Source: Dehalococcoidia bacterium UBA5748 (GTDB taxonomy: Bacteria; Chloroflexota; Dehalococcoidia; Dehalococcoidales; UBA5627). From it: a stretch of DNA of 64,000 bases. Position numbers and translations under genes: made by a program. The stretch is taken from the NCBI GenBank assembly GCA_002419135.1, contig DIFM01000041.1:35130-99129 (forward strand), in the 5' to 3' direction. Each line of letters starts with the position of its first letter. Positions within the stretch are counted from its first letter, which is position 1. Of this stretch, positions 8,754 through 42,367 are shown piece after piece. Below the pieces are notes generated by a model. It searched no databases. It saw nothing but the letters and a program-made list of their open reading frames with translations, and had not been told where the DNA came from.

Positions 8754-9701
8754 TTATTCTTGAGGTCTTTCATAGGAAACGCTTATCATATCTTGTTTCC
8801 CCCAAACACCGACGATTATTTTAAATTTAAAATCATCAATGACACCACTCATTCTGGTACTGGGACCGCTATATTCCTGTACAACGGTTTCTTTATAATC
8901 CTGCGTTTCACCGTAAAGTTCACGGTAGTAGTTTACAGCTTCTTCATACGAACCGGTATGGCTGAACATTTTAGAAGCCATTATAGTTCCATTTGGAGGA
9001 TTACTGGTACATGCATAGTGTTCGTCCCACATATCTCCCAATTTATACGGGTTTAAAAGTGATTCCGGGAAGTCGGTATGGAACGGATTACTCGTTATAT
9101 TAAGAGTATTGGGTAGAAGTACTGATAAGTAAACTATATTCTCACCGCTCCAGTAATCCCAGCGTGCATCCACCTCATAGCCATTAACAGTTCCCTTAGC
9201 ATCCCAAAAAGATGATTCCTCATTCGTGTCGAGAAGCGCGGTATAATACTCGGCTATTTCCTTTTGAGTTTTGTCGGTAACATAAACAACGTTATAAGTA
9301 TTAGTAAAATGCCCGGTATTATTATAGGCTGGAAACATAATATCGAATGAACAGCTATCTATGGCGAGCTTGCCGTATAAAGGCCAGATATCTTCGGGGT
9401 ATCCGCCCAGCAGATAGCCCCGATAATGGCTATAGGGGTCGGTCGAGGTTGTTGCGCTTGATGTTGTGGATGCTATAGTTGTATCGGTGGTGATAATGGC
9501 AGGAGTAACTGTTATTGTTGTCGGATGAGTTACGGTTACTGTAGTAGGGATCGATAAGGTAGTGGTAATTGTATCGGTTATTCTTTCCGTACTTGTGAGA
9601 GTAATAGTTTCCGGAGTGGGTTCACTGCAGCCTGGCAATACAGATATCACGATTAATAATGCCAAAATAACTGATGTCCATATGTACTTATGCTTATTCA
9701 T
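8754..9701 (-). CDS. Lipoprotein of unknown function with a Thr-rich linker
   Basis: 315 aa. Signal peptide plus lipobox (VLPGC), a long T/I/S-rich low-complexity linker, then a globular domain I do not recognise. Confidence 0.6.
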   Translation of the reverse strand: MNKHKYIWTSVILALLIVISVLPGCSEPTPETITLTSTERITDTITTTLSIPTTVTVTHPTTITVTPAIITTDTTIASTTSSATTSTDPYSHYRGYLLGGYPEDIWPLYGKLAIDSCSFDIMFPAYNNTGHFTNTYNVVYVTDKTQKEIAEYYTALLDTNEESSFWDAKGTVNGYEVDARWDYWSGENIVYLSVLLPNTLNITSNPFHTDFPESLLNPYKLGDMWDEHYACTSNPPNGTIMASKMFSHTGSYEEAVNYYRELYGETQDYKETVVQEYSGPSTRMSGVIDDFKFKIIVGVWGKQDMISVSYERPQE

Positions 9702-9846
9702 ATGAAAGTTCTCCTGAAGACTTATAGAAACATAAAGGTCAAGACGCTACTTATCCTTATATGACGGGATATTATATCAAAAATATCTACTTGGCGTAAA
9801 ATCATGTTTCGGGATAAACTATCAATGGGCGTTAATACGATAATGC

Positions 9847-12800: not shown

Positions 12801-13095
12801 GTAAAAAATCGTTTGCCGGTTGGCCGTTGATTATGATAGGAATGTCACCTGTTTCTATACCAGCCTGAGCTCCTAAGCCGGCTGAATCCAAGCTTTGAAC
12901 AACCCATCCGTCTTCAGTTAATTGTAACAATACCCCGATATATGTTTTATTCAAGCTGGAGAAGAATAAAATTAATGAAAAGGCTATAACTAACAAACTG
13001 AAAAGTAGGATAGCAAATTCCCGCTTATGACAAATTATATTTGGTAACGTAGATTTTCCTGAAGTTTCATTAGCAATGGGCGGTCGGGAACTCAT
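9847..13095 (-). CDS. Hybrid sensor histidine kinase (PDZ-like, multi-TM, GAF-like, PAS, HisKA, HATPase_c, C-terminal receiver)
   Basis: 1082 aa. After an N-terminal TM segment comes a PDZ-like segment (LDSAGLGAQAGIETGDIPIIINGQ), about 10 hydrophobic helices and a PAS region. These are followed by the H-box EMAAGIAHEINNPLTG, the ATPase motifs NLIVNAEYSM / DNGLGI / GTGLGL, and a C-terminal REC (ILVIDDE...IIIIDIRMPDMSG...ISKPF). Confidence 0.85.
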   Translation of the reverse strand: MSSRPPIANETSGKSTLPNIICHKREFAILLFSLLVIAFSLILFFSSLNKTYIGVLLQLTEDGWVVQSLDSAGLGAQAGIETGDIPIIINGQPANDFLQPYEKQKQCLGVTLTDLSVVSTTGQTISVTVKNSTPPLQYITELIPYLIVCVIFWLTAYYVFFYKPRSAIAILLLLCSLAFGLAIIGNVAGIVRIPGAVHLAVIATTLGPWFLLHFFLILPEERSSLRHNPYIFLIYLPAVITLLIYPIIGYANGEPTMGFRSIRSIELAVAFLAVIGVAIYNYVSAVSPRTRQQMKLLLYFCIAAVAPFLLLSILPSMITGDILISASFTVIFIAFIPIGMGYAIMTQKLLDINIFVRRSVIYLIISIIIASIFSLFIILILFYVKSLTILQAVLIALLMGLVASMLFGPVKNGITVIVDKFFYKDKYDYQKTLRELSSSLNSITDINTGSTLIVNILTERFNLDGACLFTTSEQEECTLIAATGSFNEEERQHDLKALLSNHNTRIIFPNSAILVNPNVEFLIPLVADGKEIGYICLSPKATKQRYSSDDLFLIQGLAPVVAISLRSWLLIADDIAKRKRSEERLRQAAEEWQITFDSIPMPVTLQSKDFKIIRFNKAYADLFSISLNEVMDNPCYKIVHQSDNPIPNCPHLKMLDTDREATIEIHHELLDKYFEITVSPIKNSSDEITGSVHIMRDITQVKKAEEEKRLLQEKAEISSRLASVGEMAAGIAHEINNPLTGVIGFSDMLMERELPQDMREQVEIIADGSRRVADIVKRLLTFARQHKPVRAMVNINDLIANTLNMRIYVLKTNNINVITEYDETLPLITIDPGQIQQVFLNLIVNAEYSMKKRDRLGELKITTKKINDKIIISFRDNGLGISEENMKRLFQPFFTTKPVGEGTGLGLSLSRSIITEHSGIISAESELNEGATFRIELPVINDSNLYEYTEPALPKENQISSKRINILVIDDEMSIRQFVKSTLNSSEYYVDTISNPYDALQKINDRNYDIIIIDIRMPDMSGQELFEKIVNDKPYLSKNILMTTGDSANIEVKNFLQKYKLHFISKPFDHKTLENKIREILG

Positions 13096-14491: not shown

Positions 14492-14878
14492 CTATTTATT
14501 ATCAAGCAGTTTGTTAATTGTGTCTAAAAGCCCATCAATTTCAAAAGGCTTGGTTATATATTCATTTGCCCCCATGACGTCAAGGCTTAATTTCTTGTTT
14601 AAGTCATGGTCGACAGCTGTCACCATTATGACAGGTATATTGGAGGTAAGCGGATTGCTTTTGACTATATGACAGGCAACATCACCGTTCATTTTGGGCA
14701 TCATAATATCCATTAATATGATATCAGGTCGTTGCTTCTGGGTTAAATCAACAGCCATTTTCCCATCGCTGGCTTCGATGACCTCATAACGACTCCGGAG
14801 TATTCTTTTTAGTAAAGACCTTACATGTTCTTCGTCGTCTACAACTAAAACTGTTTTTTTACCTGTTTTATTTTCCAT
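14492..14878 (-). CDS. Stand-alone CheY-like response regulator receiver
   Basis: Motifs VLVVDDEE, the phospho-acceptor in IILMDIMMPKMNG, VIMVTA and YITKPF. The likely start is the internal Met (MENKTGKK) rather than the track start at 14902. Confidence 0.85.
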   Translation of the reverse strand: MENKTGKKTVLVVDDEEHVRSLLKRILRSRYEVIEASDGKMAVDLTQKQRPDIILMDIMMPKMNGDVACHIVKSNPLTSNIPVIMVTAVDHDLNKKLSLDVMGANEYITKPFEIDGLLDTINKLLDNK

Positions 14879-15053
14879 AATTACCGTCTGAATTATTACC
14901 ACGGTAATTATATATCCATTTAGTGATAAATTACTATAGTTTTTGGGGATTTTATCATAAATATTATTGAAAATTTAATCATTTATTCGGAAACAATGAT
15001 AACTTACATATTGAATGAAATAGGGTAGAACTTAAGTAATACAATGCACGGTA

Positions 15054-23029: not shown

Positions 23030-26000
23030 ATGGATGAAGTAAGAATTGGCGTTTATATATGTGATTGCGGTACCAATATCGCAGCTACAGTGGATACAAA
23101 AAAAGTAACTGAATTTGCCCAGGGATTGGATTCGGTGGTTGTTGCGCGTAATTATAAGTATATGTGTTCTGATCCCGGTCAAAACCTGATAAAAGATGAT
23201 ATCAAGGAAAAGAAGCTTAACAGGGTTGTAGTAGCAGCATGTTCTCCGAGGATGCACGAACCGACTTTCCGTAGAGCTGTGCAGGACGCAGGTATTAATA
23301 AATATTATTTCCAAATGGCAAATATCCGCGAACAGTGTTCATGGGTGCACGAGAATAAAGAAATGGCGACCGAGAAAGCCAAGGCTCTGGTTGAAGCTGC
23401 TGTGCGTCGTGTAGCATATCATGAGTCTTTGCAGACCAGGGAAGTGCCGGTCAACCCGAATGTGCTGGTAGTTGGTGGCGGTATCGCCGGTATTCAAGCA
23501 GCGCTGGAGATTGCCGATGGCGGAAAGAAGGTATATCTGGTGGAAAAAGATCCCAGCATCGGCGGTCATATGGCAATGTTTGATAAAACATTCCCTACAC
23601 TTGATTGTGCGGCCTGTATTCTGACTCCGAAGATGACCACGGTTGGGCAACATCCGAATATCGATCTTTTAAGTTACAGTGAAGTGGAAGAGGTATCCGG
23701 CTTCGTTGGCAATTTTAAAGCAAAGATAAAAAGAAAGGCGCGCTATGTTGATGAAACGAAGTGTACCGGCTGCGGTGAATGCACTAAAGTATGCCCGGTA
23801 CATGTAGATAATGAATTCGATATGGGTTTAAGCCAGCGTAGTGCTGCATACATTCAATCTGCTTATGCGGTACCTAACAAGGCTGTTATCGATAAAAAAG
23901 GTGTATCCCCTTGCCGTGTTGCCTGTCCGGCCGGGGTAAATGCTCATGCCTATATTGCATTGATATCCCAGGGAAAGTTTAAGGAAGCGTTGGAGGTGGT
24001 ACGCAAATCGATTCCGCTGGCAGGGGTAGTCGGTAGGGTCTGCTATCATCCCTGTGAAACTGAATGCGAGAGAGCTACGGTTGATGAAGGACTTATGATA
24101 CGCGACCTGAAGCGTTTTGTCGCTGATTATGAAATGAAAATCGGCAGGGAAAAGGCCGGTCCTGTTGAAATCACAAAAGATGACAGGGTGGCTGTAATCG
24201 GTTCCGGTCCCGCAGGGCTTGCATGCGCTTTTGATTTAATAAAGAACGGCTACCGTGTTACCGTATTCGAAAAGGCAGAGAAAGCCGGTGGTTTGATGAG
24301 GTACGGTATACCGAATTTCAAATTGCCTGAGAATATCGTGGATAACGAAATAGAATGTATCCAAGAAATGGGTGTTGAAATAAAAACCGGCTCTGAGATT
24401 AACGATATTCCCGATCTGTTCAATAAGGGCTATAAAGCAGTATTTTTAGCAACGGGAGCAGGTAAAAATAAGGAACTCGGTATTCCCGGTGAAGAAAACG
24501 ATAATGTGTTCCCGGCTCTTGATTTCCTGAAAAAAATCAATTCGGGCGAAAAGATAGCGGTTGGTAATAAGGTTGTTATTATTGGCGGTGGCAATATTGC
24601 GGTTGAAGCGGCAAGGGTTGCATGGAGATTGGGAGCAAATGATGTTACGATTGTTTACAAAAAATCCGAAGCCGAAATACCAGCCAGTGACAGTGAAGTT
24701 GAAGAAGCTGAACAAGAGGGCATTAAATTCAAATACGACACTACCGCCGATGAAATCGTAGTGCGCGATGGTAAAGTAACGGGTGTTAAATGTGTCAGCG
24801 AAGCTAAAGGGCAAAAATCCGATCAATTCGTGATAGATGCCGATAATGTAATAAATGCAGTCGGACAGGCGGTCGAAAAAACCGAACTGTCGAAAGAACT
24901 GGCGTTTACCGATTTGGGTTATCTGGAAGTCGATCCGGTTACACTTGAAACTAATGTTTCAGGGGTATTTGCCGGTGGTGAAGTAGTGGCCGGACAATTG
25001 GATGTGATTGCATCTGTTGCTGCAGGTAAAGCCGGTGCTGAAAGTATTGACAGATATTTAAGTGGCAACGATATGCGTGAAGGACGCTTCGAGCAGATGC
25101 CTCGTGTAACTAAGGTTAACAAGGATAAAGTCAAAACAAAGACCAGAGTAGTTATGTCTAAATTGGAAACCTCGAAACGAAATGATAATTTCGATGAGGT
25201 TGAACTCGGATTTGACGAGAGCCTTGCTATAGAAGAAGCCAAACGCTGTTTGAATTGCGCTGTTTGTTCTGAATGTATGTTATGCGTAAAGGCATGCGAA
25301 GCCGAAGCAATTGTTCATGACGTCAAAGAACAGACGCTCGAAGTCGAAGTAGGTTCTATTATTGTGGCTACCGGAATGAAGCAATTCGACCCTGAGGTAA
25401 TGTACACTTATGGATATAACCGCTTCGATGATGTTTTAACAGGTCTTGAGTTCGAAAGGCTTTCAAATGCGTCGGGTCCTACCGATGGTGTTGTCGTTAA
25501 AAAGAATGGAGAGAAACCAAAGAGTGTAGCTATACTGCACTGTGTAGGAAGTCGTGATGAAAACTACCACAAGTATTGCTCTCGTGTATGTTGTATGTAT
25601 TCATTAAAGTATGCCCATCTTTTGAAGGAAAAATTACCCGAAGCCGATGTTTATCAGTTGTACATAGATATGCGCTGCGCCGGTTCTGGATATGAAGAAT
25701 TCTACCTCAGATTACAGGAAGAGGGTGTCAATTTTATAAGAGGACGAGGAGCAGAAATCACGAATACGGCTGAAACGCCGGAAGAGAAAGATAAACTTAT
25801 TGTTCATTGTGAGGACACTCTGATACGTAAGAAAAGAAGGTTGCCTGTAGATATGGTAATCCTGAGCTGTGCTCTTGAGCCGAGCGATGGTGCCGAACAA
25901 ATTGGGAGAGTTCTTTCAATCAGTAAAAAAGCGGATGGATTCTTCCTTGAGAAACACCCCAAACTGGACCCGGTATCAACAATGACCGATGGAATATTCA

Positions 26001-26341
26001 TAGCGGGTTGCTGCCAGGGGCCGAAGGATATCCCCGATACGGTGGCTCAGGCTTCGGCGGCTGCCGCCAGAGCGCTGGCTATGATAAGTAACAATAAAGT
26101 CGAAATCGATGGGGCTACATCGGAGATCATTGAAGAATTATGTTCCGGATGTCGTATCTGTAATAACCTGTGTCCGTACAGTGCGATTACATTTAATGAA
26201 ACTAAAAAGGTATCCGAAATCAATCCTGTTCTCTGTAAGGGGTGCGGGGTTTGCGTATCTGCCTGTCCTAGCGACGCTATAACGGGCAATCACTTTACCA
26301 ATAAACAGATAATGGCAGAAATTGAGGGGGTGTTAGCATGA
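23030..26341 (+). CDS. hdrA: HdrA-like flavoprotein carrying an inserted GltD/NfnB-like NAD(P)H-binding module (1103 aa)
   Basis: HdrA hallmarks: N-terminal [11 protein letters not shown] site [36 protein letters not shown], and C-terminal [12 protein letters not shown] / [12 protein letters not shown]. Between them (about aa 290-700) is a GltD-like block: [10 protein letters not shown]...[31 protein letters not shown]...[31 protein letters not shown]. Confidence 0.85.
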
Positions 26342-29708: not shown

Positions 29709-30785
29709 ATGTGTATTTTATCGCAAAGCAACACACTTCAGATTAATCAGAGCACAGGCCAATACCTCAGAATTGAGCAATCGAACCTGTTGTCTATGCC
29801 ATTGTCAGAACTTAATTCATTTATCAGAGAAATTGAAAACAGCGAGTTGTTTGTTAAATATTTTAGGGAAAACAAAATTGTCCGCTATCAGAGATTTGAT
29901 AATTCAGATACATATATAAGCCATTTAAAATTTGATGAATCGGCTCTTGTTGATAATCAGCCTCCTGAAATAGATTCATTGCTGGAAAACAATCAAAACA
30001 CGATTGAATACATTCGTAAAATCGGTCCGGATAATTTTAAGAAATTTTTCATGGTACCGGAGGAAGGTCAATCCGAAGATGAAATTGCATTTGCCTGTGG
30101 CATACCTATAGCGTATGTTAAGGATATCAATAATCTGGTAAATGATATGGCGGTACTGGATGAGTTCCATTCTACATCCTCTCTTAACATTAATGATGTC
30201 AATTATACTAAAGTCGCCGCTATTGATAGAGAAGGAGACGGATTCAGGGTAAGCTATTATTTAAACTCTCTGGCAAGAGGGCGGTATCTGATAAATTATG
30301 AAATGCTTGAAGAGCATATAGTCCGGAAGTGCGTCAATGACGATGAAATAAAAAAAATAAGAGCCCTTCTTAAAAAGCTGGAGATGATAAATGTCTGTAA
30401 ACAGACATTGCATATCATTTTAATTAATTTAATCCACAAACAATGGGCTTTTATTGATTCGGGGAATTTCAAGGATTTATTGCCGCTTAGTCAAAAAGAA
30501 TTGGCTTTTCAACTGGGAATCAATCCGGCTACCTTAAGCCGTGCCATTAAGTTGAGAACAATAGATATTCCTTGTGGGCGGGAGATAACTCTAAAAAGTC
30601 TGTTTCCGAATCCAAGAAAATTCCGGATGGCGGTCCTGAAAAAGGTTTTACAGTCAGAAAATAATCTTATATCAGATAGAGTAATACAATCTAAACTATC
30701 CGGAAAATATGGAGTAAACATCTCAAGGCGTACAGTTGCAAATATGAGGAGGGAATTGAAAATACCTGCCGGGGGAGCTAGATAA
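29709..30785 (+). CDS. rpoN: Short sigma-54 (RpoN)-like factor, 358 aa
   Basis: C-terminal RpoN box ISRRTVANMRRELKIPAGGAR. HTH and flanking region CKQTLHIILINLIHKQWAFIDSG...LLPLSQKELAFQLGINPATLSRAIK...LKSLF. Gln/Leu-rich N-terminus LQINQSTGQYLRIEQSNLLSMPLSELNSFIREIENSE. Confidence 0.75.
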   Translation: MCILSQSNTLQINQSTGQYLRIEQSNLLSMPLSELNSFIREIENSELFVKYFRENKIVRYQRFDNSDTYISHLKFDESALVDNQPPEIDSLLENNQNTIEYIRKIGPDNFKKFFMVPEEGQSEDEIAFACGIPIAYVKDINNLVNDMAVLDEFHSTSSLNINDVNYTKVAAIDREGDGFRVSYYLNSLARGRYLINYEMLEEHIVRKCVNDDEIKKIRALLKKLEMINVCKQTLHIILINLIHKQWAFIDSGNFKDLLPLSQKELAFQLGINPATLSRAIKLRTIDIPCGREITLKSLFPNPRKFRMAVLKKVLQSENNLISDRVIQSKLSGKYGVNISRRTVANMRRELKIPAGGAR

Positions 30786-32735
30786 ATGAGTATCATTTAT
30801 ACTGAAAAAGATAAATGTAAAAGTTGTTACGCGTGTATACGCAGTTGTCCTGTTAAAGCTATTAAAGTCGAAGATCGACTGGCACAGGTAATACGAGAGC
30901 GTTGTATAGTTTGCGGAAACTGTTTGGAAGTATGCGTTACCGGTGCAAAGAAAGTTGAGAGCGATACCAGCCTCGTGTGGCAATTACTTAGCAAAAGGGA
31001 TAATTATTTAGTTGCGGTAGTTTCCTCATCTTTCCCGGCTGCCATGCCCGAAGTAGAACCGGGTAGTTTTGTTTCTGCATTGAAAAAATTGGGCTTTAAT
31101 GAAGTTATGGAAGATTCCGTTGGCGCAGAGTTAATAGGCAAGGAATACAGACGTTTGTTAACTAATCAGACCGGTAAACCGGTCATATCATCAAACTGCC
31201 CGGCGGTAGTAAATTATATAGAAAAATATTATCCCAAGTTAATTGGCTATATGGCTCATATCGTATCGCCGACTATAGCAACCGGCAGGTTGATTAAAAA
31301 CCATTATAACAGGGCAGCAAAAGTTGTTTTTATCGGTCCTTGTGTTGCAAAAAAAGATGAGGCGCGTAAACCCGGTAACCGTGGCGTGATAGACGCCGTT
31401 TTGACATTTGCCGAGCTCAAAGAAATGTTTACGGCGAAAAAGATAATCCCCGAAAAAGAGCCCCCATCAAGTTTTAGCGGGCCGACTCCCGACTTAGGCA
31501 GACTGATGTCTATTTCCGGAGGGTTGGCAAAGATTGCCGGGCTGTCAGATGATATCCTGAAAAACGAGGTGATCGGTGCTAACGGAAGGGAAGCGGTATC
31601 AAAAATATTAAAAGAGTTTGCCCATGGCGAGATTAATGCAAAGCTGATAAATCTCTATTTTTGCCACGGATGTGTTGGCGGTCCGGTAATCGATAATGAT
31701 TTGAGTATCTACAGACGCGAGGAACTTGTTGCTCGCTACGCATTAAAAGAATCTCATCCGGAACGGACGAAAAGCGATCTTGAGAAGTATGCTGATATCC
31801 AATTAAGCCGGCAATTTGTAACTCAGAATGTAATACTTGCCTCACCGGGTGATGAGGAAATTGAGAAAGTACTGCAAAAGATGAATAGGAGTAATCCTGA
31901 GGAACAGTTTAATTGCGGTGCCTGTGGTTACAGCTCGTGTCGTGAACTGGCTATGGCTGTTTGTGAAGGATTAGCAGAAATTGAAATGTGCTGGCCATAT
32001 TTGCATAAACATATGCAGGAAACGCAGGATGGATTGATACAGGCAGAAAAGATGACTTCTCTCGGGCAGCTTGCTGCTTCGGTTGCGCACGAAATCAACA
32101 ATCCCTTGTCAGGTGTTCTTATATATACGCAGCTTATGTCCAAGAAGTTAAAGGATAAGAATTATAGCACAGACGTTGCCCTGGACTATTTATCAAAAAT
32201 GGAAACGGAACTCAATCGAAGTACCAAGCTGGTCAGAAGTTTGCTCGATTTTTCAAGACAAACGGTTCCTGAGTTTTGGGAAGTGGACGTCAATGAGATA
32301 GTCGAAAGAAGTTATGACCTTGGTATACATTCGGCGGAAATGCAAAATGTGGAAGTATTAAAGCACCTTTCGCCGAATTTGCCTAAAATAGTGGCTGATT
32401 TCGGACAGATTCAGCAGGTTTGTACCAACCTTATAATGAATGCCATACAGGCAATGCCCGGCGGGGGAGTTTTAACGATACGTACATTACCGCTGGATGA
32501 ACAGGTACTGATAGAGGTAAGCGATACCGGAGTAGGAATATCACAGGAGAATATGAAAAAGCTTTTTACTCCTTTTTTCACCACAAAAAAAGAACAAAAA
32601 GGGGTGGGGCTGGGATTGGCAATATCTTACGGCATTGTCCAGCGTCATCATGGAAGAATAGATATAAAAACCAAAGAAGGAGAAGGCACAACGTTCAAGG
32701 TCTACCTGCCTGTCGTACATGAAGAAGAAGATTAA
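30786..32735 (+). CDS. Soluble sensor histidine kinase with an [FeFe]-hydrogenase H-domain-like sensor
   Basis: 649 aa with no TM segments. Two 4Fe-4S motifs (CKSCYACIRSCP, CIVCGNCLEVC). H-cluster-like motifs SSNCP (C138), GPCVAKKDE (C186) and FCHGCVGGP (C293/C296). A CGACGYSSC...C...C module, the H-box SVAHEINNPLSG, and HATPase motifs NLIMNAIQAM, DTGVGI, GVGLGL. Confidence 0.8.
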   Translation: MSIIYTEKDKCKSCYACIRSCPVKAIKVEDRLAQVIRERCIVCGNCLEVCVTGAKKVESDTSLVWQLLSKRDNYLVAVVSSSFPAAMPEVEPGSFVSALKKLGFNEVMEDSVGAELIGKEYRRLLTNQTGKPVISSNCPAVVNYIEKYYPKLIGYMAHIVSPTIATGRLIKNHYNRAAKVVFIGPCVAKKDEARKPGNRGVIDAVLTFAELKEMFTAKKIIPEKEPPSSFSGPTPDLGRLMSISGGLAKIAGLSDDILKNEVIGANGREAVSKILKEFAHGEINAKLINLYFCHGCVGGPVIDNDLSIYRREELVARYALKESHPERTKSDLEKYADIQLSRQFVTQNVILASPGDEEIEKVLQKMNRSNPEEQFNCGACGYSSCRELAMAVCEGLAEIEMCWPYLHKHMQETQDGLIQAEKMTSLGQLAASVAHEINNPLSGVLIYTQLMSKKLKDKNYSTDVALDYLSKMETELNRSTKLVRSLLDFSRQTVPEFWEVDVNEIVERSYDLGIHSAEMQNVEVLKHLSPNLPKIVADFGQIQQVCTNLIMNAIQAMPGGGVLTIRTLPLDEQVLIEVSDTGVGISQENMKKLFTPFFTTKKEQKGVGLGLAISYGIVQRHHGRIDIKTKEGEGTTFKVYLPVVHEEED

Positions 32736-34068
32736 AATATTAATTGTAGATGATGAAGACGTAATCCGTGATTCGTTTTATGAATGGTTAACGGAGTTAG
32801 GTTATGATGTTCTGCTGGCTGAGAACGGTATTAGCGCTTTAAGTGTTATCAATGAGAAAAAACCTGATATTGCTTTTATTGATTTGGTTCTGCCCGGAAT
32901 GGACGGGATAGAGGTTTTGAGAAAAATCAGGGAAACAGGACAAGGTACCGGTTGCGTAATTATGACTGCGTACGGAGGTATATCCACTGCTATAACCTCA
33001 ATGAAGGAAGGTGCTTTCGATTATATTGAAAAGCCTTTTTGCCCCGGTAAAGTGGAACTTTTAATTGAAAAGATGATAGAACATCAAACAATAAAAAAAG
33101 AGAATTTGTTGTTGCACCAAAAGCTTGATGAACGCTTTAATTTTGAGAACATTATTTACAAAAGTACCAAAATGCAAAGAATAGTTGAACTGGTTAAGGC
33201 TGTCGCTAAAAGCAATGCTACGGTGCTTATAACCGGAGAAAGCGGCACCGGAAAAGAATTGATTGCCAGGGCAATACATAGCTACAGCAATCGTTGTAGT
33301 AAACCATTTATTGCTATAAGTTGTGCCGCTCTGCCGGAGAATATTCTGGAGAGTGAATTGTTCGGACATGAAAGAGGTTCGTTTACCGGCGCCCATGCCC
33401 GCAGGAAGGGTAAATTTGAAATTTCCGATGGCGGAACCCTTTTTATGGATGAAATCGGAGACATGAGCACCAATATACAGATTCACTTATTGAGAGTGTT
33501 AGAAGAAAAAGAGTTTACACGGGTAGGCGGTAACGAAGTCGTTAAAGTGGATGTGAGATTGATATCAGCCACCAACAAAGATATGAAGCAGGAAGTCTTG
33601 AATGGTAATTTCAGGGAAGACTTATACTATCGGTTGAATGTGGTTAATATTGAATTGCCTCCCTTGCGTGACAGAAAAGAGGACATCCCGTTGCTGGCGG
33701 AGCATTTTTTAACTAAGTTTGCCGAAGAGAATAAAAAAGACATCAAAGACTTAAGCCCGGATGCCATTAATGATTTATTGAAATATGATTGGCCCGGTAA
33801 TGTCAGAGAGCTTGAAAACGTGATAGAGCGGGCGGTAATTCTGTCAGAAGAAAGTTTGCTAAATACAAAAGACCTGTTTTTAGAAGAGAACGGTGTACTT
33901 GTAGGGGAAAAAACATTAACCAGTATAACGGAAATTGAGAAAAAGCATATTGTTAATGTTTTGGAAGAATGCGGTGGGAATTGTACTAAATCGGCTCGTA
34001 TTTTAGGAATATCACGTATGACGCTGTATAATAAAATCCGGTCATATGGCATTGAAGTAAAAAAATAA
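32719..34068 (+). CDS. Sigma-54-dependent NtrC-family response regulator (enhancer-binding protein)
   Basis: 449 aa. REC (ILIVDDED, IAFIDLVLPGMDG, EKPF), AAA+ (GESGTGKE, GSFTGA loop, LFMDEIG, RVGG) and a C-terminal HTH (KSARILGISRMTLYNKI). Overlaps the kinase gene by 17 nt. Confidence 0.9.
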   Translation: MKKKIKILIVDDEDVIRDSFYEWLTELGYDVLLAENGISALSVINEKKPDIAFIDLVLPGMDGIEVLRKIRETGQGTGCVIMTAYGGISTAITSMKEGAFDYIEKPFCPGKVELLIEKMIEHQTIKKENLLLHQKLDERFNFENIIYKSTKMQRIVELVKAVAKSNATVLITGESGTGKELIARAIHSYSNRCSKPFIAISCAALPENILESELFGHERGSFTGAHARRKGKFEISDGGTLFMDEIGDMSTNIQIHLLRVLEEKEFTRVGGNEVVKVDVRLISATNKDMKQEVLNGNFREDLYYRLNVVNIELPPLRDRKEDIPLLAEHFLTKFAEENKKDIKDLSPDAINDLLKYDWPGNVRELENVIERAVILSEESLLNTKDLFLEENGVLVGEKTLTSITEIEKKHIVNVLEECGGNCTKSARILGISRMTLYNKIRSYGIEVKK

Positions 34069-34089: not shown

Positions 34090-34105
34090 TGGCATAATAA
34101 TTGCA
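34090..34105 (+). promoter_or_regulatory. Sigma-54 (-24/-12) promoter
   Basis: TGGCAT-AATAA-TTGCA, against the consensus TGGCAC-N5-TTGCW. It begins 22 nt (a 21-nt gap) after the activator stop and lies 46 nt upstream of the ATG at 34152, which is preceded by GGGAGGG. Confidence 0.7.
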
Positions 34106-34151: not shown

Positions 34152-34562
34152 ATGAAATCATTCGATCTTATTTCTATTAACCCTAGGGATGTTCCTGAAC
34201 ATTTGAAAATAGGGCAGGAAAAATACGAGAATGGTAATTACGAGGAAGCTGTAAATGAATTCAGTTCCATATTGAATGTAGCGCCCAGCAATATCGATGC
34301 CAGGATATGGCTTAGGAAAGCGCAGGTTTCTCTGGATAAAGAAAAAGGGCTCCTTTCTGAAAAAGTAGCAAATCCCAAAATTAAGGAATTAAAAGAACGT
34401 CCCGGTGCGCAAAGATATTGCCTGTATTGTGTTAAAGGGGATGTTTCAAACAGGGTATGCAGTCGTCTTTTTCAGTGTAAGACTTGTGAATTCGGGCAGA
34501 ATATGCAGAATTTACAAAAAGCAAAACTGGCTGCCAAAAAAGAAGCGGTTGTAAAAGAATAA
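34152..34562 (+). CDS. Small protein with a TPR-like helical N-terminus and a C-terminal Cys-rich (zinc-ribbon-like) segment
   Basis: 136 aa. GQEKYENGNYEEAVNEFSSILNVAPSNIDARIWL looks like a single TPR. The C-terminus carries CLYC-x9-C-x6-CKTC. It is the first ORF after the sigma-54 promoter. Confidence 0.55.
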   Translation: MKSFDLISINPRDVPEHLKIGQEKYENGNYEEAVNEFSSILNVAPSNIDARIWLRKAQVSLDKEKGLLSEKVANPKIKELKERPGAQRYCLYCVKGDVSNRVCSRLFQCKTCEFGQNMQNLQKAKLAAKKEAVVKE

Positions 34563-34611: not shown

Positions 34612-36954
34612 ATGTGTAATATGAATGAGAGTTCTGTGCTTGTTATCGAAAGTGATCCCATTGTTAGGGAATCTCTCAGTGGTTGGTTGAGCAGCACCGG
34701 ATTTGAGGTTACTTCTGCAGAAGACGGGGAGAAAATTGTAAAAGTTTTCGCCAAAAGTGATTTTAATATTGTTATAATGGATGTCCGTTTGCACAGTGAA
34801 ACACAGCTGGCGACACTCCGGGAAATGAAGGCAATTCGTCCATGGATAAAAACAATTATAATCGCAGCTCATCCACAGGAAGAAACAGTGCTGGAAGCCA
34901 AAAAAATCGGAGTAGTAGACTATATTGTAAAACCTGTGGATATGGATGACCTGCAAAGAATTATACAGGGGTCAGTAGAATCTATTTACAAAGATAATGT
35001 TAATATTACCGATGATAACACTTCCTTCGAAAGTTCCGGTGATGAGCTGGTGCCGGGAATAAAAAAATCATTTGCCATATCGAGAGAATACCTGTCTTTA
35101 ATGGTAGAAAATCTACTTAGAGAAACCGAAGTTATCGGGGTGAAGGCGAAGCAGGGAAAGTATATCTACGACAGGATTCATGGTTTTTATGAACTTAGTC
35201 TGGATTATGATGTTACGGTGTCGCCACCCACCAGATATATGTTTCCAGCCAAAGAGACACTCTTAAAATTTAAAACGGGAAACGGCAACCATGTGGAGCC
35301 GGTAATTGAATCCACGCCGAGGGTGATTATCGGTGTTCATCCATACGATATCAAGGCTATTGAATTACTGGATGACGTTTTTATGAACCATAATCCCGAC
35401 CCGAACTACATCGCAAGGCGGGAAAATACAATAATTATCGGAGTGGACTGTCTACACCCGTCGCCCCGCAGTTTTGCGCCCAGTATGGGGACCAATTGGA
35501 CTGAAACAGGCTTTGACCTGCTGTTAACCGATATCGGAAACAGTTATATTGTAAAAATAGGGACCGAAAAAGGGGCGGAACTGCTGGCAAAACATACCAA
35601 ATACCGTTTACCTACCGGAGATGAAATTGTCAGGCAGAAAAAGGTAAGGGGAGAGGCTTTAAACAGATATAAAGTTGCGCTGGATACACCAAAGGACAGA
35701 ATCCCCAAAATACTTGAGGAAAGTTATGATGACCCTTATTGGGAGAACAGGAGCGCAACATGTTTAAGTTGCGGGTCATGTATTATGGTCTGTCCTACCT
35801 GTTACTGTTTTGATGTAAAGGATGAGATGGCGTTGAATTTAACGGAGGGCGAAAGATTCAGGCGCTGGGACGGATGTATGCTGGTTGATTTTGCAAAAGT
35901 TGCTTCGGGGGAAAACTTCCGGAAGGATAAAGCCAGCCGTTTTCGCCATAGAATGTTTCGCAAAGGAAAATATATACTGGAAAGATATGGGAAAGTCGGA
36001 TGTGTAGGTTGCGGCCGCTGCTCAAGTGCTTGTTTGGCGGGTATTGCCAGTCCGCTTGAGGCATTTAACTCGCTGGCAGAAAATATTCGCTTAAAGGAAG
36101 CTGCAACCAGCGTTATTCAACCTGCAAAGCAGGCAATGGATATTTATACTCCGGAAATGGCAGAAATTCTTTCGGTGAGGCAATTAACGGAGAAAGAAAA
36201 AGTTTTTGAATTAAAACTAAAAAGCGGTAAAAAACTGGGACATTACCCCGGACAGTTCGTTACAGTTTCAATAATGGGTACCGGCGAAGCGCCGTTGTCC
36301 ATTTCGTCTTCACCTTTAAGAGGAAAAAACTTTCAACTGGCCGTGCGTAGTATGGGCGATTTAACATCAGCGCTGCATTCGGTAGAAGCAGGCGCTACGG
36401 TAGGTATCAGAGGACCGTTTGGCAATGGTTTCCCTCTGGAAACACTGGAGGGGAGGGACCTGTTGCTTATCGCCGGTGGAATCGGGCTTTTCCCATTGAG
36501 ATCGCTGATACAATATGTGATGGATAGGCGATATGATTACGGTAAGGTAAGCCTTCTTTACGGTTGTCGTACACCTGCCGAACGTGTTTTTACCGATGAA
36601 CTGGATTTTTGGCAAAACAGCAAGGATATAGATTTCCATGAAACGGTTGATCTGCAAAGCGAAGGGTGGACGGGTAACGTGGGGGTAATTACCAATTTAA
36701 TCGATAAAGTGGAGATTGACCCTAAGAAGACTATGGTGGCGGTGGTAGGACCGCCGATAATGTATAAATTTGTTATCGAAAAATTAAAAAAGAGGGATTT
36801 GCCTGATGCTCATGTTTTTCTCTCTTTGGAACGTAAGATGAAATGCGGAGTAGGTAAATGCGGGCATTGCCAGATTAACGGTATATATACCTGTCAGGAA
36901 GGGCCGGTGTTTTCACTTACGCAGTTAAGAAGTTTGAGAGAGGCGGTGCTGTGA
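34612..36954 (+). CDS. Receiver domain fused to hydrogenase beta-like (4Fe-4S) and gamma-like (FAD/NAD(P)/2Fe-2S) subunits of a group-3b-type [NiFe]-hydrogenase
   Basis: 780 aa. REC at about aa 8-120 (VLVIESD, D57 in NIVIMDVRL, K107 in YIVKPV). Beta-like part with CLSCGSCIMVCPTCYC and CVGCGRCSSAC. Gamma-like part with PLSISS, LLLIAGGIGLFPL and C-terminal CGVGKCGHCQ. The start could be the ATG at 34621. Confidence 0.8.
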   Translation: MCNMNESSVLVIESDPIVRESLSGWLSSTGFEVTSAEDGEKIVKVFAKSDFNIVIMDVRLHSETQLATLREMKAIRPWIKTIIIAAHPQEETVLEAKKIGVVDYIVKPVDMDDLQRIIQGSVESIYKDNVNITDDNTSFESSGDELVPGIKKSFAISREYLSLMVENLLRETEVIGVKAKQGKYIYDRIHGFYELSLDYDVTVSPPTRYMFPAKETLLKFKTGNGNHVEPVIESTPRVIIGVHPYDIKAIELLDDVFMNHNPDPNYIARRENTIIIGVDCLHPSPRSFAPSMGTNWTETGFDLLLTDIGNSYIVKIGTEKGAELLAKHTKYRLPTGDEIVRQKKVRGEALNRYKVALDTPKDRIPKILEESYDDPYWENRSATCLSCGSCIMVCPTCYCFDVKDEMALNLTEGERFRRWDGCMLVDFAKVASGENFRKDKASRFRHRMFRKGKYILERYGKVGCVGCGRCSSACLAGIASPLEAFNSLAENIRLKEAATSVIQPAKQAMDIYTPEMAEILSVRQLTEKEKVFELKLKSGKKLGHYPGQFVTVSIMGTGEAPLSISSSPLRGKNFQLAVRSMGDLTSALHSVEAGATVGIRGPFGNGFPLETLEGRDLLLIAGGIGLFPLRSLIQYVMDRRYDYGKVSLLYGCRTPAERVFTDELDFWQNSKDIDFHETVDLQSEGWTGNVGVITNLIDKVEIDPKKTMVAVVGPPIMYKFVIEKLKKRDLPDAHVFLSLERKMKCGVGKCGHCQINGIYTCQEGPVFSLTQLRSLREAVL

Positions 36955-37694
36955 TGAAACCGAAAGTGGCTTTTTTTGATTTTACCGGATGCGAAGGCTG
37001 TCAGCTGGATGCGCTGAATTTGGATGCCGAAGATTTAATTGATCTGCTGAACGGGGTGGATATCGTCGATTTTAGGGAGGTAATGACGGAAAGGTCTGAT
37101 AATTACGATATAGCTTTTGTCGAGGGTAGTATAACTACCGAGGGTGAAATAGAACGTATCAAAAAGATCAGAGAACAGGCTAAAATAGTGGTTGCTCTGG
37201 GTGCTTGTGCCTGTATCGGCGGAGTAAATTGCCTTAAAAATCATGTGCCGATGGAAGAAGCTCTCAGAATTGTATATGGTAAAGATGCCAAATACTATAA
37301 TACAATACCCGCCAGACCTGCCGATGCTGTGATAAAGGTAGACCACTATGTTCGCGGTTGTCCGCCGTCTACTGCCGAATTAGTCAAAGTAATAAAGGCT
37401 TTATTAATGAACAAAAAGCCGGACATTCCCAGCTATCCGGTTTGTGTGGAATGCAAAATGGCAGGTAATATTTGTGTTTATGAAAAAGGGCAGACCTGTC
37501 TGGGGCCTGTTACAAGAGCCGGTTGCAATGCGATATGCATAACCAGCGGCAGGTATTGTTGGGGCTGTCGTGGTTTGGTCGATGAACCCAATATCCAATC
37601 TCAGAAAGACATTCTAAACAAATATGGGCTTACCGCAGAACAGGTGATAGAGAAGTTTAAAATATATGATACGTGCAGTGAGGTGCTAAAATGA
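36951..37694 (+). CDS. [NiFe]-hydrogenase small (delta-like) subunit, group 3b type
   Basis: 247 aa with N-terminal VAFFDFTGCEGCQLD, GACACIGG and C-terminal Cys clusters (CVECK, CLGPVTRAGCNAIC, CWGCRG). Start and stop overlap the neighbouring genes on both sides. Confidence 0.8.
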   Translation: MMKPKVAFFDFTGCEGCQLDALNLDAEDLIDLLNGVDIVDFREVMTERSDNYDIAFVEGSITTEGEIERIKKIREQAKIVVALGACACIGGVNCLKNHVPMEEALRIVYGKDAKYYNTIPARPADAVIKVDHYVRGCPPSTAELVKVIKALLMNKKPDIPSYPVCVECKMAGNICVYEKGQTCLGPVTRAGCNAICITSGRYCWGCRGLVDEPNIQSQKDILNKYGLTAEQVIEKFKIYDTCSEVLK

Positions 37695-38977
37695 CACAGG
37701 TTAACATAAATGTTCATCATTTAACCCGTGTCGAAGGACATGGCAATATTGTTCTCAATGTAAATGAAGGGAAAATTGAAGAGCTAAAATGGATTGTTTC
37801 GGAATCCCCCCGTTTCTTTGAAGTGATGATGCGTGACAGATACTATGAAGACGTCAATCATATAGCATCCAGAATATGCGGCATCTGTTCTATATCACAT
37901 TCCACAGTCTCTTTACAGGCTACCGAAAAGGCGTTTGGAATCAAACCTTCCGAGCAAACAATCCTGTTAAGAAAACTATTATTCAATGCGGAAGTAATGG
38001 AAAGCCATATATTGCATATTATGTTTTTAGCGGCTCCGGATTTTCTGGGTGTAGGCAGTGTTTTCCCGCTGATAAATACCCATAAAGATATTGTTGTTAT
38101 GTCTTTAAGACTGAAAAGGTTGTCTTATAATTTAGCTGAAGCGCTGGCGGGGAGAAAAACGCATCCTCTTTCATGTATTGTCGGTGGTTTTGCCAAACTG
38201 CCTCAATACAGTGAACTTGAAGACCTGCGTAAAAGACTTGAAGATGCTCTGATTGACCTTGCGACTATTGTTGACTTGTTCAAAACATTGAAAATACCGG
38301 AGTTTCAGCGTGAAACCGAATACATCGCTCTCAAAGATGAAAGCGAGTATGCTTTTATCAGCGGGCAAATTGCCTCTTCCGATACAGGGCTGACACCGGT
38401 AGAAAATTATCTCAAAGTCACAAATGAATTTTGTGTTCCCCAGTCTACGGCTAAATATACTAAAAATGCCAGAGATTCCTATATGGTAGGCGCCCTGGCT
38501 CGGTTTAACATAAATCATGAACAACTCCTTCCGAAAGCCAAAAACGCTGCCAATGAACTTGGGCTGGTAGCTCCTAATATAAACCCGTTCATGATAACTG
38601 TCGCCCAGCTGGTTGAGGTTATACACGTTGTGGAACATAGTATTCAAATAATCGACCGCCTGTTTGCTGCCGGAATAAAAGAAGAACCTCATCGGGTTAA
38701 TCCCAGGAGGGGACGAGGCATTGCTTCAGTGGAAGCGCCGCGTGGTATTCTCTTCCATGACTATACTTACGGAGAAGGTGGTGTTTTAAAAGAAGCCAAC
38801 TGCGTAATACCGACCAATCAGAATCACAATAATATTCAAAAAGATTTTGAATCGCTTGTTCCCATAATCCTGTTGCAACCCGAAAACCAAATACGGCATA
38901 CCATGGAAATGCTGGTAAGGGCATACGACCCGTGTATTTCGTGTTCAGCCCATATGTTAAAAGTCGATTTCAAATAA
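37691..38977 (+). CDS. [NiFe]-hydrogenase large (alpha-like) subunit, group 3b type
   Basis: 428 aa with RVEGHGNI, RICGICSISH and C-terminal DPCISCSAH followed by only 7 residues. The beta-gamma-delta-alpha order mirrors Pyrococcus furiosus hydBGDA. Confidence 0.8.
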   Translation: MTQVNINVHHLTRVEGHGNIVLNVNEGKIEELKWIVSESPRFFEVMMRDRYYEDVNHIASRICGICSISHSTVSLQATEKAFGIKPSEQTILLRKLLFNAEVMESHILHIMFLAAPDFLGVGSVFPLINTHKDIVVMSLRLKRLSYNLAEALAGRKTHPLSCIVGGFAKLPQYSELEDLRKRLEDALIDLATIVDLFKTLKIPEFQRETEYIALKDESEYAFISGQIASSDTGLTPVENYLKVTNEFCVPQSTAKYTKNARDSYMVGALARFNINHEQLLPKAKNAANELGLVAPNINPFMITVAQLVEVIHVVEHSIQIIDRLFAAGIKEEPHRVNPRRGRGIASVEAPRGILFHDYTYGEGGVLKEANCVIPTNQNHNNIQKDFESLVPIILLQPENQIRHTMEMLVRAYDPCISCSAHMLKVDFK

Positions 38978-39167: not shown

Positions 39168-39187
39168 GGATGATGAGGTGTGTCACG

Positions 39188-39601
39188 ATGCAATGTCCCA
39201 TATGTAAAAAAGACATGATAGATGTCGAGTATGATAAAATCGAATTAGATTATTGTGTTAAATGTAAGGGAGTGTGGTTCGACTCCGACGAATTCGAACT
39301 GCTGTTTGAGAAAATGAATCTTGGGGATTCCTTTCCATTATTCTCGGAATTAACAAATAGGATTGATGACAAAGTTTCGGAGAATAAACATAAATGCCCT
39401 ATATGTAAAAAGGCAATGGGCAAGATAAGAATCGGGGATAATTCCAAGACTATTATCGATATATGTGTTAACGGTGACGGGTTGTGGTTTGACGGAGGAG
39501 AGGTTGTTCTACTAATCAAGCATGCTTCAAAAGATATTCAGCAGGAATCAAGCGCTGAACAACAGGCAATAAACTTTCTTGGAGAGGTCTTTCGTATATA
39601 G
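39188..39601 (+). CDS. Tandem TFIIB-type zinc-ribbon protein
   Basis: Two repeats of CPICKK-x-M...D-x-C-x-x-C/G-x-G-x-WFD. The start is chosen from the promoter and RBS geometry; the track start at 39170 would be essentially leaderless. Confidence 0.65.
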   Translation: MQCPICKKDMIDVEYDKIELDYCVKCKGVWFDSDEFELLFEKMNLGDSFPLFSELTNRIDDKVSENKHKCPICKKAMGKIRIGDNSKTIIDICVNGDGLWFDGGEVVLLIKHASKDIQQESSAEQQAINFLGEVFRI

Positions 39602-41530: not shown

Positions 41531-42025
41531 TCAAATATCTTGTGTAAAATTGGGTAAGGGCTTATCCTCCCAGTTATTATTCAGATGATTCATTACTCCA
41601 AAGATTATTCGGTCCACACTTTTATAATTGGTAAAACAGCTCATTGTTTTGGTTCTTCTTCTGACTTCCCTGAAAGATCTCTCTATAACATTGGTGGTTC
41701 TTATCTTAATACGATGTGATACCGGACAATCCAAGAAATTCAGCATCTCATCCAGGTCATTTTCCAAGCACCTGATTGCCCTGGGGTAATGTATACACCA
41801 TTCGGATTTCCAGTCATTAAAAGCTTTAACTGCCTCCCTCCTGTTGTCTGCCAAATATATCAATTTCGTCCCTGCCATGCACTTTTTCTGGTCTTTACGC
41901 TTCAGGTAGTTGGAAATGTTCCTCAGTTTGTGCGCCCAACACCTTTGGATAGGAATATAAGGATATATTATTTCAATAGCACTGTGCAGCCCCTTGCAGC
42001 CATCGATACAGATGAGCTTGCAGTT
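41531..42025 (-). mobile_element. IS256-family transposase remnant (C-terminal ~165 aa only)
   Basis: The minus-strand frame is open beyond the track ORF and reads ..LICIDGCKGLHSAIEIIYPYIPIQRCWAHKLRNISNYLKRKDQKKCMAGTKLIY...TNVIERSFREVRRRTKTMSCF.. This is the DDE-region and C-terminal signature of mutator/IS256 transposases. The N-terminal half is absent. Confidence 0.75.
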
Positions 42026-42043
42026 GTTCCCCGCCGATCCTCT

Positions 42044-42367
42044 TTGTCTCTCATGTCGGATAATGGCTGCCAGCCAACATCGATAAGCTTCATGAAATCG
42101 TGCCGTGACATGGGAATTAAGCAGGCTTTTACCAGCTACAATAACCCCAAGGGGAATGCCGATACCGAGAGGTTTTTCCGGACAATGAAAGAAGAGCTAT
42201 TATGGCTACGAGATTGGGTAAATCCTATGGAGCTTATGGATGAAATCGGAGAATAGATTCCGAATTACAATGCCAACTATCTGCATTCGTCACTGGGATA
42301 TAAGACACCAAACCAGGCGGAAACAGAATATTATAATGGACAGCTACTACACAATTTGAGGGCTTGA
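42044..42367 (+). mobile_element. rve (IS3/IS481-type) transposase remnant, 5'-truncated with an in-frame TAG
   Basis: ..MSDNGCQPTSISFMKSCRDMGIKQAFTSYNNPKGNADTERFFRTMKEELLW.. continues in the same frame after the TAG at 42254-42256 as IPNYNANYLHSSLGYKTPNQAE..*. This is a typical integrase-core C-terminus. Confidence 0.7.

Follow-up and report, generated by a model that had tools for sequence, protein, structure and literature searches.

Can a receiver domain of the two-component kind be built into the electron-transfer arm of a hydrogenase, and if so, is the enzyme itself an output of the signalling pathway? The question is raised by a stretch of 64,000 nucleotides (the window) from Dehalococcoidia bacterium UBA5748 (contig DIFM01000041.1), where a single open reading frame (ORF) of 780 amino acids without an internal stop, at 34612-36954 on the forward strand, joins a CheY-like receiver (REC) to homologues of the beta and gamma subunits of a [NiFe]-hydrogenase. 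To our knowledge the regulation of hydrogenases is described almost entirely at the levels of transcription and maturation; a working receiver in the diaphorase arm would put H2/NAD(P)H exchange under fast, signal-dependent control. Homology identifies the fusion ORF as the diaphorase arm of an NAD(P)-linked [NiFe]-hydrogenase, cytosolic and of the group-3b type, and we are close to certain that the REC-beta-gamma architecture is real and widespread. Judged from the residues of its active site, phospho-control is likely for the family at large and uncertain for the window's own copy, because only three of the five signature residues of that copy are canonical.

Receiver, beta and gamma in one polypeptide

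The ORF was divided into REC, beta and gamma parts by an earlier reading made from the sequence alone (the sequence-only reading), and Pfam domains, structural matches and motifs all bear this division out. Response_reg covers residues 9-118 (75.4 bits against a cut-off of 30.2; 5e-21) and Fer4_22 residues 383-478 (110 bits), with FAD_binding_6, NAD_binding_1 and DHODB_Fe-S_bind following at residues 519-605, 619-721 and 740-772. The beta and gamma motifs quoted in that reading are all where it placed them: CLSCGSCIMVCPTCYC at 384 and CVGCGRCSSAC at 464 in beta; PLSISS at 561, GGIGLFP at 622 and CGVGKCGHCQINGIYTC at 745 in gamma, with C745, C750, C753 and C761 as the cysteines of the [2Fe-2S] motif. 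The true start of the gene is probably the ATG at 34621 (M4), since in a 95%-identical relative (L002 among our numbered loci) codon 2 is a stop, MNESS is where several database homologues start, and that ATG follows a conserved GGGGA/AGGGA. Numbering would then move by -3, D57 becoming D54; the positions given here count from 34612.

The best structural matches of the enzyme parts are the chains of Pyrococcus furiosus sulfhydrogenase I (SHI), in keeping with the homology to the group-3b sulfhydrogenase that had been claimed for beta, gamma, delta and alpha. Beta matches 9nez_B (2e-52; query 179-479), gamma matches 9nez_C (9e-59; query 512-770), and alpha, the large subunit encoded downstream, matches 9nez_D over its full length (7e-67), with MvhA (9e-49), FrhA (1e-35) and HoxH (2e-31) lower. 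NCBIfam ranks ShyB/HydB first for beta (6e-64 and 9e-61), HydG/ShyC for gamma (HydG 1e-62), HydD for delta and ShyA/HydA for alpha; all of these scores fall far below the equivalog cut-offs, which points to a distant bacterial branch, and no NCBIfam model spans the REC-beta-gamma architecture, every match being under its curated cut-off. In an AlphaFold2 single-chain model made from 68 family sequences (mean predicted local distance difference test (pLDDT) 73, predicted template-modelling (TM) score 0.65), the N-terminal domain of beta and the gamma part are well predicted, the Fe-S regions being of low confidence because the cofactors are absent from the model; the top Foldseek matches are SHI gamma (TM 0.85) and SHI beta (TM 0.67).

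The delta and alpha ORFs each overlap the preceding stop codon by 4 nt, confirming what had been read from the sequence, and REC-beta-gamma, delta and alpha would together make a three-polypeptide enzyme. The Ni-Fe ligand motifs of alpha (RICGICSISH at 61, DPCISCSAH at 413), both cysteine clusters of beta, the gamma [2Fe-2S] motif and the FAD and NAD(P) motifs are all intact, and on this evidence the hydrogenase looks like a working enzyme rather than a relic. It has both marks of group 3b, namely the large-subunit ligand motifs and diaphorase modules whose genes accompany those of delta and alpha. The archetype consists of four separate polypeptides without a signalling domain; here REC, beta and gamma share one ORF, which is a difference of architecture, not of homology.

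Might the protein be something else, or nothing at all? Many of the homologues are labelled "sulfite reductase subunit B" by JGI, and the AsrB (3e-61) and AsrA (2e-40) models do match; however, hydrogenase delta and alpha genes follow directly, the siroheme protein AsrC of an AsrABC system is not among the neighbouring genes, AsrA scores under ShyB and HydB, and the SHI chains match best in both sequence and fold. Against an artefact of assembly or a frameshift stands the recurrence of the uninterrupted fusion in over 120 clusters, mostly Dehalococcoidales, of independent assemblies and in eight syntenic metagenome-assembled genomes (MAGs). We regard the artefact and the AsrAB-type misassignment as effectively refuted. 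Nor does the enzyme belong with the regulatory group-2b sensors (HoxBC or HupUV with a PAS kinase), its alpha subunit being closest to group 3b.

The spread of the fusion was traced in about 5.8 billion proteins, with 954 matches at E <= 1e-10, and the homologues sought for this architecture were found in abundance: among the top 120 clusters (at 90% identity) all except two hold REC, beta and gamma in one protein of about 775 amino acids, and the architecture recurs in hundreds of independent assemblies. These clusters are 58-95% identical to the query and come from NCBI, JGI, ENA and Logan assemblies; their named members are Dehalococcoidales, Dehalococcoidia or Chloroflexota, and "response regulator" and "4Fe-4S dicluster domain-containing protein" are further database labels of the homologues. 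Among GTDB species representatives, eight Dehalococcoidales MAGs carry the fusion at 81-96% identity, the closest being Dehalococcoidia bacterium UBA5627. A peptide-pattern scan of genomes returned close Dehalococcoidales relatives and REC-less beta/gamma genes only; the wider families described next were found by searching representatives and with a profile.

When the protein library is grouped at 50% identity, the triple fusions fall into what is essentially a single cluster (P0121). Beta-gamma fusions that lack REC are spread over many clusters, and REC-beta proteins with a separate gamma over at least six; further types are REC-HisKA-HATPase-beta, a PilS-like transmembrane-HisKA-HATPase-beta, REC-gamma and HTH-beta. 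The beta-gamma fusion alone is common, and it is the receiver that is the added feature. The profile search gave about 20 REC-beta and about 16 REC-kinase-beta clusters, some named Planctomycetota or Phycisphaerae; for members of REC-beta clusters Planctomycetota were the only organism names returned, with few members named. All three of the REC-beta and REC-kinase-beta loci inspected are beta-gamma-delta-alpha operons. In one REC-less beta/gamma operon (L016; isolate DP16D_bin.2, an unclassified bacterium), the gene directly upstream of beta, at 9331-9954 of that locus, encodes a separate REC protein of 207 amino acids that ends in a CxxC...CPxC domain, so the association with receivers extends beyond fusions.

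By the standard of the sequence-only reading, an architecture both widespread and already characterised would have told against it. The first half holds: the architecture is not rare but widespread in metagenomes, with REC-beta and REC-kinase-beta variants. As to characterisation, that reading knew of no hydrogenase subunit with a receiver domain, and we too found none in the full-text literature, a body of text that mostly excludes subscription journals, so that absence from it is not proof. The receiver-diaphorase fusion is apparently undescribed so far.

The receiver site and its divergence

The receiver has the (beta-alpha)5 fold over residues 8-120: in the AlphaFold2 model, strands at 8-12, 32-36, 53-57, 80-85 and 101-106 alternate with helices at 16-28, 39-46, 62-75, 90-99 and 111-131. 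Its best NCBIfam matches are AtoC, ZraR and NtrC. When 119 family sequences (the window and 118 homologues) were aligned with CheY, the phospho-acceptor D57 fell on CheY D57 and was present in all of them, as was the aromatic switch residue Y104; K107 is found in 117, the switch residue T85 in 118 and the acidic pair DD in 112. Five canonical signature residues out of five are thus the norm of the family.

The window keeps D57, K107 and Y104, and it alone has Ala85; D57, K107 and the alanine at the switch had been read correctly from the sequence. The acidic pocket had been given as E13 and D15, and this needs correction: the canonical pair aligns to E13-S14, and D15 is the next position, which is Glu elsewhere in the family. 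E13-S14-D15 replaces D-D-E in the whole of the window's subclade (sequences of at least 80% identity, plus the eight syntenic loci L001-L008), so that, with S14 at the Mg-binding position, the metal-binding Asp has been lost there. The beta3-alpha3 loop of the subclade is altered as well (P61H/Q, G65Q). Codon 85 is GCA in the window and ACC or ACT in its relatives, including those that are 95-96% identical; the two closest relatives have A86S instead of T85A. The window's copy is the least canonical member of the family.

Divergence is concentrated in the receiver. Between the window and the clade with canonical receivers, identity is 46% in REC, 68% in beta and 66% in gamma, against 79%, 73% and 78% within the canonical clade; clade-specific fixed changes number 12 in the 113 REC residues and 18 in the roughly 612 of beta-gamma (Fisher p = 8.5e-4). 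The tether between REC and beta is predicted to be disordered and is poorly conserved, with 13% identity to the canonical clade, the highest ratio of non-synonymous to synonymous differences (pN/pS) among the four regions, and pLDDT below 50 at residues 129-145. Raw pN/pS values between the window and L003 are 0.098/0.619 (about 0.16) for REC, 0.056/0.629 (about 0.09) for beta and 0.045/0.639 (about 0.07) for gamma, pairs with L002 being left out; on these values the window's REC is under purifying selection.

Has the subclade receiver, then, ceased to be phosphorylated? It might be a pseudo-receiver, that is, a phosphorylation-independent module such as a constitutive regulatory or assembly domain, or a dock for the TPR/Cys-rich protein encoded just upstream, with control of the hydrogenase moved wholly to transcription via the kinase, an enhancer-binding protein (EBP) and sigma-54. 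The Ser in place of the Mg-binding Asp in every subclade member, the altered loop, the T85A or A86S changes and the enrichment of fixed changes in REC would all fit this, and the remodelling coincides with the loss of a stand-alone REC and a small kinase and the gain of EBP, sigma-54-like and TPR genes. However, D57, K107 and Y104 are all kept, and E-S-D is conserved in the subclade through synonymous codon changes, which, together with the low pN/pS of REC, argues for a site that is maintained rather than decaying; the longer Glu13 beside the smaller Ser14 could amount to a compensated metal site, and a kinase of the same transmitter family still lies adjacent. We consider loss of phosphorylation rather unlikely.

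We suggest that the receiver site was remodelled as its set of partners changed, from a stand-alone REC and a transmembrane kinase to a kinase of the [FeFe]-like type together with EBP, sigma-54-like and TPR proteins, and that the phospho-switch in the window's lineage has probably been weakened or altered. The phosphorylation-dependent enzyme control proposed in the sequence-only reading accordingly suits the family, with its canonical receiver, better than the window, where the active site itself is altered.

Kinases, stand-alone receivers and the promoter

Two-component genes adjoin 15 of the 16 loci examined. In the window's subclade a kinase and/or an EBP is present at all eight loci, and the eight syntenic MAGs have a common gene order: HdrA, MvhDGA, HycI, the sigma-54-like protein, the [FeFe]-like kinase, EBP, TPR, REC-beta-gamma, delta, alpha, Zn-ribbon, LemA and HtpX. 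Another module is common to four of five canonical Dehalococcoidales loci (L021, L023, L027 and L028; Table 1), in which a stand-alone REC of 123-132 amino acids lies immediately upstream of REC-beta-gamma, delta and alpha, and a HisKA-HATPase kinase of 366-403 amino acids, whose N-terminus is hydrophobic, is encoded directly downstream on the opposite strand; these modules hold no DNA-binding regulator. Stand-alone and fused RECs of one locus are 65-83% identical, suggesting that the stand-alone genes either arose by recent tandem duplication or gave rise to the fusion. The three REC-beta and REC-kinase-beta operons likewise have Cache(-HAMP) kinases and stand-alone RECs, with sigma-54 EBPs in two. 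Other REC-fused enzymes surround two REC-beta operons (L024, 6034-7923 and 12463-13755; L026, 8001-10241 and 13232-14209), as REC-Pyr_redox_2, REC-FolD (THF_DHG_CYH), HycI maturation protease-REC and REC-HisKA-HATPase-beta.

Which kinase could be the phosphodonor in the window? The sequence-only reading had named the adjacent one, and this is plausible. That kinase is syntenic in all eight subclade loci. In its transmitter core it shares 49-51% identity with the small kinases beside the canonical operons and 61% with a cyclic nucleotide (cNMP)-binding kinase in L028, and its H-box, SVAHEINNPL, is identical to that of the canonical-locus kinases. This indicates a single family of kinases, in which a fixed transmitter would have been given different sensors (transmembrane, cNMP-binding or [FeFe]-like), and the shared transmitter is the best argument for the adjacent kinase as cognate donor. 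The classes of the partners also match, the kinase core being AtoS/ZraS-like and the fused receiver AtoC/ZraR/NtrC-like. The sensor of the window kinase holds, beside its [FeFe]-hydrogenase-like H-domain, a putative Fe-S domain; the four cysteine ligands of the H-cluster are kept and the proton-relay Cys is replaced by Asn (SSNCP vs TSCCP). Such a replacement is expected of a sensory rather than a catalytic [FeFe] hydrogenase. Some 20 kb away from the hydrogenase genes, the window also encodes a PAS-HisKA-HATPase-REC hybrid kinase of 1082 amino acids and a single-domain receiver of 136 amino acids.

The occurrence of beta fused directly to kinases (REC-HisKA-HATPase-beta and the PilS-like form) as well as to RECs prompted us to consider signalling in reverse, or as a side branch. 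The beta-gamma(-delta-alpha) redox module would then be the sensor, and REC a phosphate sink, set by the redox state of the Fe-S and FAD centres, that tunes phosphoryl flux from the kinase to the EBP, in analogy with H2-sensing HoxBC-HoxJ-HoxA. One kinase and two receivers do occur within the same cluster, and the stand-alone paralogues of the canonical loci are typical of sink or competitor arrangements. We nevertheless think this improbable: an N-terminal REC with a C-terminal effector is the standard layout of a response-regulator output, all catalytic and cofactor motifs are kept in an enzyme closest to catalytic group 3b and not to regulatory group 2b, the canonical modules hold no transcription factor for a sink to modulate, and the window kinase already owns a hydrogenase-like sensor domain.

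A transcriptional arm through the EBP had also been proposed, and it gains support from a conserved -24/-12 element. The element TGGCATAATAATTGCA has one mismatch to the sigma-54 consensus TGGCAC-N5-TTGCW and lies in the gap between the EBP and TPR genes, 47 nt upstream of the TPR ORF, which is the first of the TPR/REC-beta-gamma/delta/alpha string. TGGCA-N6-TTGCA is found at the same distance in seven of the eight syntenic loci (L001-L003 and L005-L008), the -12 half alone being recognisable in L004. A scan of the whole window for sigma-54 motifs with up to two mismatches gave 28 matches against 25.7 expected, with no enrichment, so the case for this element rests on its lying between genes, on its having just one mismatch and on its being conserved in the syntenic loci. 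Like elements precede the REC-beta operon of the EBP-containing locus L025, and none was found at the canonical loci that have no EBP. The short sigma-54-like protein, whose gene is syntenic in L005, L006 and L008, is recognisable by its DNA-binding domain and RpoN box only; it may be a truncated sigma-54 paralogue dedicated to this cluster. The TPR-like gene, syntenic in L001-L008, occupies the slot of the stand-alone REC of the canonical loci.

Some further neighbours may be mentioned. HdrA of the window contains a GltD/NfnB-like insert (Fer4_20 and Pyr_redox_2, residues ~293-657), which hints at an NAD(P)H-linked Hdr-Mvh complex; in L023 and L027 HdrA is called as two far smaller proteins without the insert. 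The gene directly after alpha codes for a double Zn-ribbon protein and precedes LemA and HtpX; five of the eight syntenic loci (including L001 and L004-L006) have it in the same place, the other contigs ending earlier. Just past HtpX, the last gene compared, lies the C-terminal fragment of a Mutator-family transposase, overlapped on the forward strand by an ORF without a Pfam match (region 41531-42256).

Table 1. Features of the hydrogenase cluster and its surroundings; positions are those of the window unless a locus is named
Feature	Position	Strand	Particulars
REC-beta-gamma fusion gene	34612..36954	+	780 codons + stop; ORF, Pfam, PDB matches 9nez_B and 9nez_C
Receiver (REC) domain	34633..34971	+	Residues 8-120; Pfam, residue alignment, AlphaFold2 fold, NCBIfam
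Receiver codons	D57 34780-34782; E13-S14-D15 34648-34656; A85 34864-34866; K107 34930-34932	+
Tether between REC and beta	34972..35055	+	Residues 121-148; poorly conserved
HydB/ShyB-like beta part	35056..36081	+	Residues 149-490; two Cys clusters, C384-C399 and C464-C474
HydG/ShyC-like gamma part	36142..36951	+	Residues 511-780; FAD and NAD(P) binding, C-terminal [2Fe-2S] motif
Delta (small) subunit	36951..37694	+	247 aa; Oxidored_q6 1e-25; HydD 8e-59; start overlaps stop of fusion gene
Alpha (large, [NiFe]) subunit	37691..38977	+	428 aa; NiFeSe_Hases; 9nez_D 7e-67; ShyA 2e-77, HydA 7e-76
Candidate phosphodonor kinase	30786..32735	+	649 aa; [FeFe]-hydrogenase-like sensor + HisKA + HATPase_c; Fe_hyd_lg_C 2e-50
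EBP (REC-AAA+-HTH)	32719..34068	+	Sigma54_activat 3e-73, Response_reg, HTH_8; start overlaps end of kinase gene
Sigma-54-type -24/-12 element	34090..34105	+	TGGCATAATAATTGCA; one mismatch to TGGCAC-N5-TTGCW
TPR-like protein	34152..34562	+	136 aa; Cys-rich C-terminus (CLYC...C...CKTC); weak TPR matches, no NCBIfam match
Sigma-54-like protein	29709..30785	+	358 aa; Sigma54_DBD 3e-16; rpoN model 3e-19, far under cut-off
Stand-alone receiver genes	L021 9606-10004; L023 9609-9989; L027 7679-8050; L028 7605-7979		Upstream of REC-beta-gamma
HdrA	23030-26341	+	1103 aa
Double Zn-ribbon protein	39170-39601	+	143 aa; Zn_ribbon_TFIIB
Mutator-family transposase fragment	41531-41878	-	C-terminal
PAS-HisKA-HATPase-REC hybrid kinase	9847-13095	-	1082 aa
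Single-domain receiver	14492-14902	-	136 aa

Proposed signal flow and comparison with known systems

We propose that the enzyme itself is an output of a two-component system, with the whole chain running from kinase to both activity and synthesis, and we hold the chance of this to be about even. In the family at large, the neighbouring HisKA kinase would phosphorylate the receiver Asp (D57 here) of an NtrC-class receiver that a flexible tether, about 25 residues long, links to the beta N-terminus; the phosphorylated receiver would alter the activity or the oligomeric state of the hydrogenase, as in CheB-type regulators, and the stand-alone paralogous receiver would compete with the fused one for phosphate. 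The lineage of the window has a remodelled receiver site (DD-E to E-S-D, and in this genome also Thr to Ala), and there the [FeFe]-like, putatively H2-sensing kinase would probably also drive the EBP and, through it, the sigma-54 promoter before the operon. One sensor would thereby govern both the synthesis of the enzyme and, possibly, its activity. We favour the enzyme as output because, in the canonical modules, the only receivers beside the kinase are the one borne by the enzyme and its paralogue.

Several observations weigh against this proposal. AlphaFold2 shows no confident docking of REC on beta-gamma; the kinase-beta fusions show that a signal could flow from redox module to kinase; the canonical locus L022 has no adjacent kinase; and in the window two of the five signature positions (S14 and A85) are off, where the burst of receiver divergence on the subclade branch could mean a lost phospho-switch.

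A broader proposal, for which we see a little less than an even chance, is that in at least two phyla (Chloroflexota and Planctomycetota, going by the automatic names of a few database entries) cytosolic NAD(P)-linked [NiFe]-hydrogenases have been wired into phosphorelays, H2/NAD(P)H exchange being phospho-switched within seconds, and that the window's lineage is a derived case. The parts of such a family would be a REC or a hybrid kinase on beta, stand-alone RECs, HycI-REC, REC-Pyr_redox_2 and REC-FolD. If true, the switching of a hydrogenase by phosphorylation would be a control mode not described so far, and would extend the outputs of response regulators to a multi-cofactor metalloenzyme. 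It would make physiological sense for fermenters and syntrophs, such as the Dehalococcoidales of anaerobic digesters, which have to prevent the loss of NAD(P)H to H2, or vice versa, as H2 pressure shifts. The family is a testable system with natural controls, having canonical receivers, remodelled receivers and beta-gamma fusions without a receiver; its kinases clearly illustrate how input domains are shuffled while the kinase-receiver pair stays fixed, and a possible route towards engineered switchable hydrogenases is opened.

Of the known systems, P. furiosus SHI (HydBGDA; PDB 9nez, 9nf0) and SH-II (ShyBCDA) are the nearest to the enzyme: all four modules are homologous, the gene order beta, gamma, delta, alpha is the same, and all cofactor motifs are present here. 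The Pyrococcus counterparts of beta and gamma are separate chains (367 and 292 amino acids in the PDB), whereas here they form one polypeptide with an N-terminal receiver and tether in addition; the subunits of Pyrococcus sulfhydrogenase carry no signalling domain.

As a regulator, the fusion resembles response regulators with enzymatic outputs (CheB, the GGDEF proteins PleD and WspR, the HD-GYP protein RpfG, and REC-PP2C), which share the N-terminal REC, the linker and the C-terminal catalytic module, a gene beside a histidine kinase and, for the family receiver, the five signature residues. Their outputs, however, are single-domain hydrolases or cyclases, in contrast to a redox subunit of a hetero-oligomeric metalloenzyme with several cofactors, and the window's REC is without two of the signature residues.

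The neighbouring kinase, not the fusion ORF, has its likeness in the putative sensory hydrogenases of the [FeFe] type (group C, such as HydS of Thermotoga maritima, and the subgroup C1 of HydDB, which is linked to histidine kinases), with which it shares an H-domain with four cysteines, a replaced relay Cys and fusion of the H-domain to a signalling output; by these features it is a candidate C1 member. HydS of T. maritima has a PAS domain and no kinase. The arrangement of a hydrogenase-type sensor, a kinase and an NtrC-family regulator recalls HoxBC-HoxJ-HoxA of Cupriavidus necator and HupUV-HupT-HupR of Rhodobacter capsulatus, the C. necator Hox cascade being sigma-54-dependent. In those cascades, however, the sensor is a separate group-2b [NiFe] hydrogenase and not an [FeFe]-like domain fused to the kinase, and the regulated enzyme has no receiver, whereas the enzyme of the window carries one.

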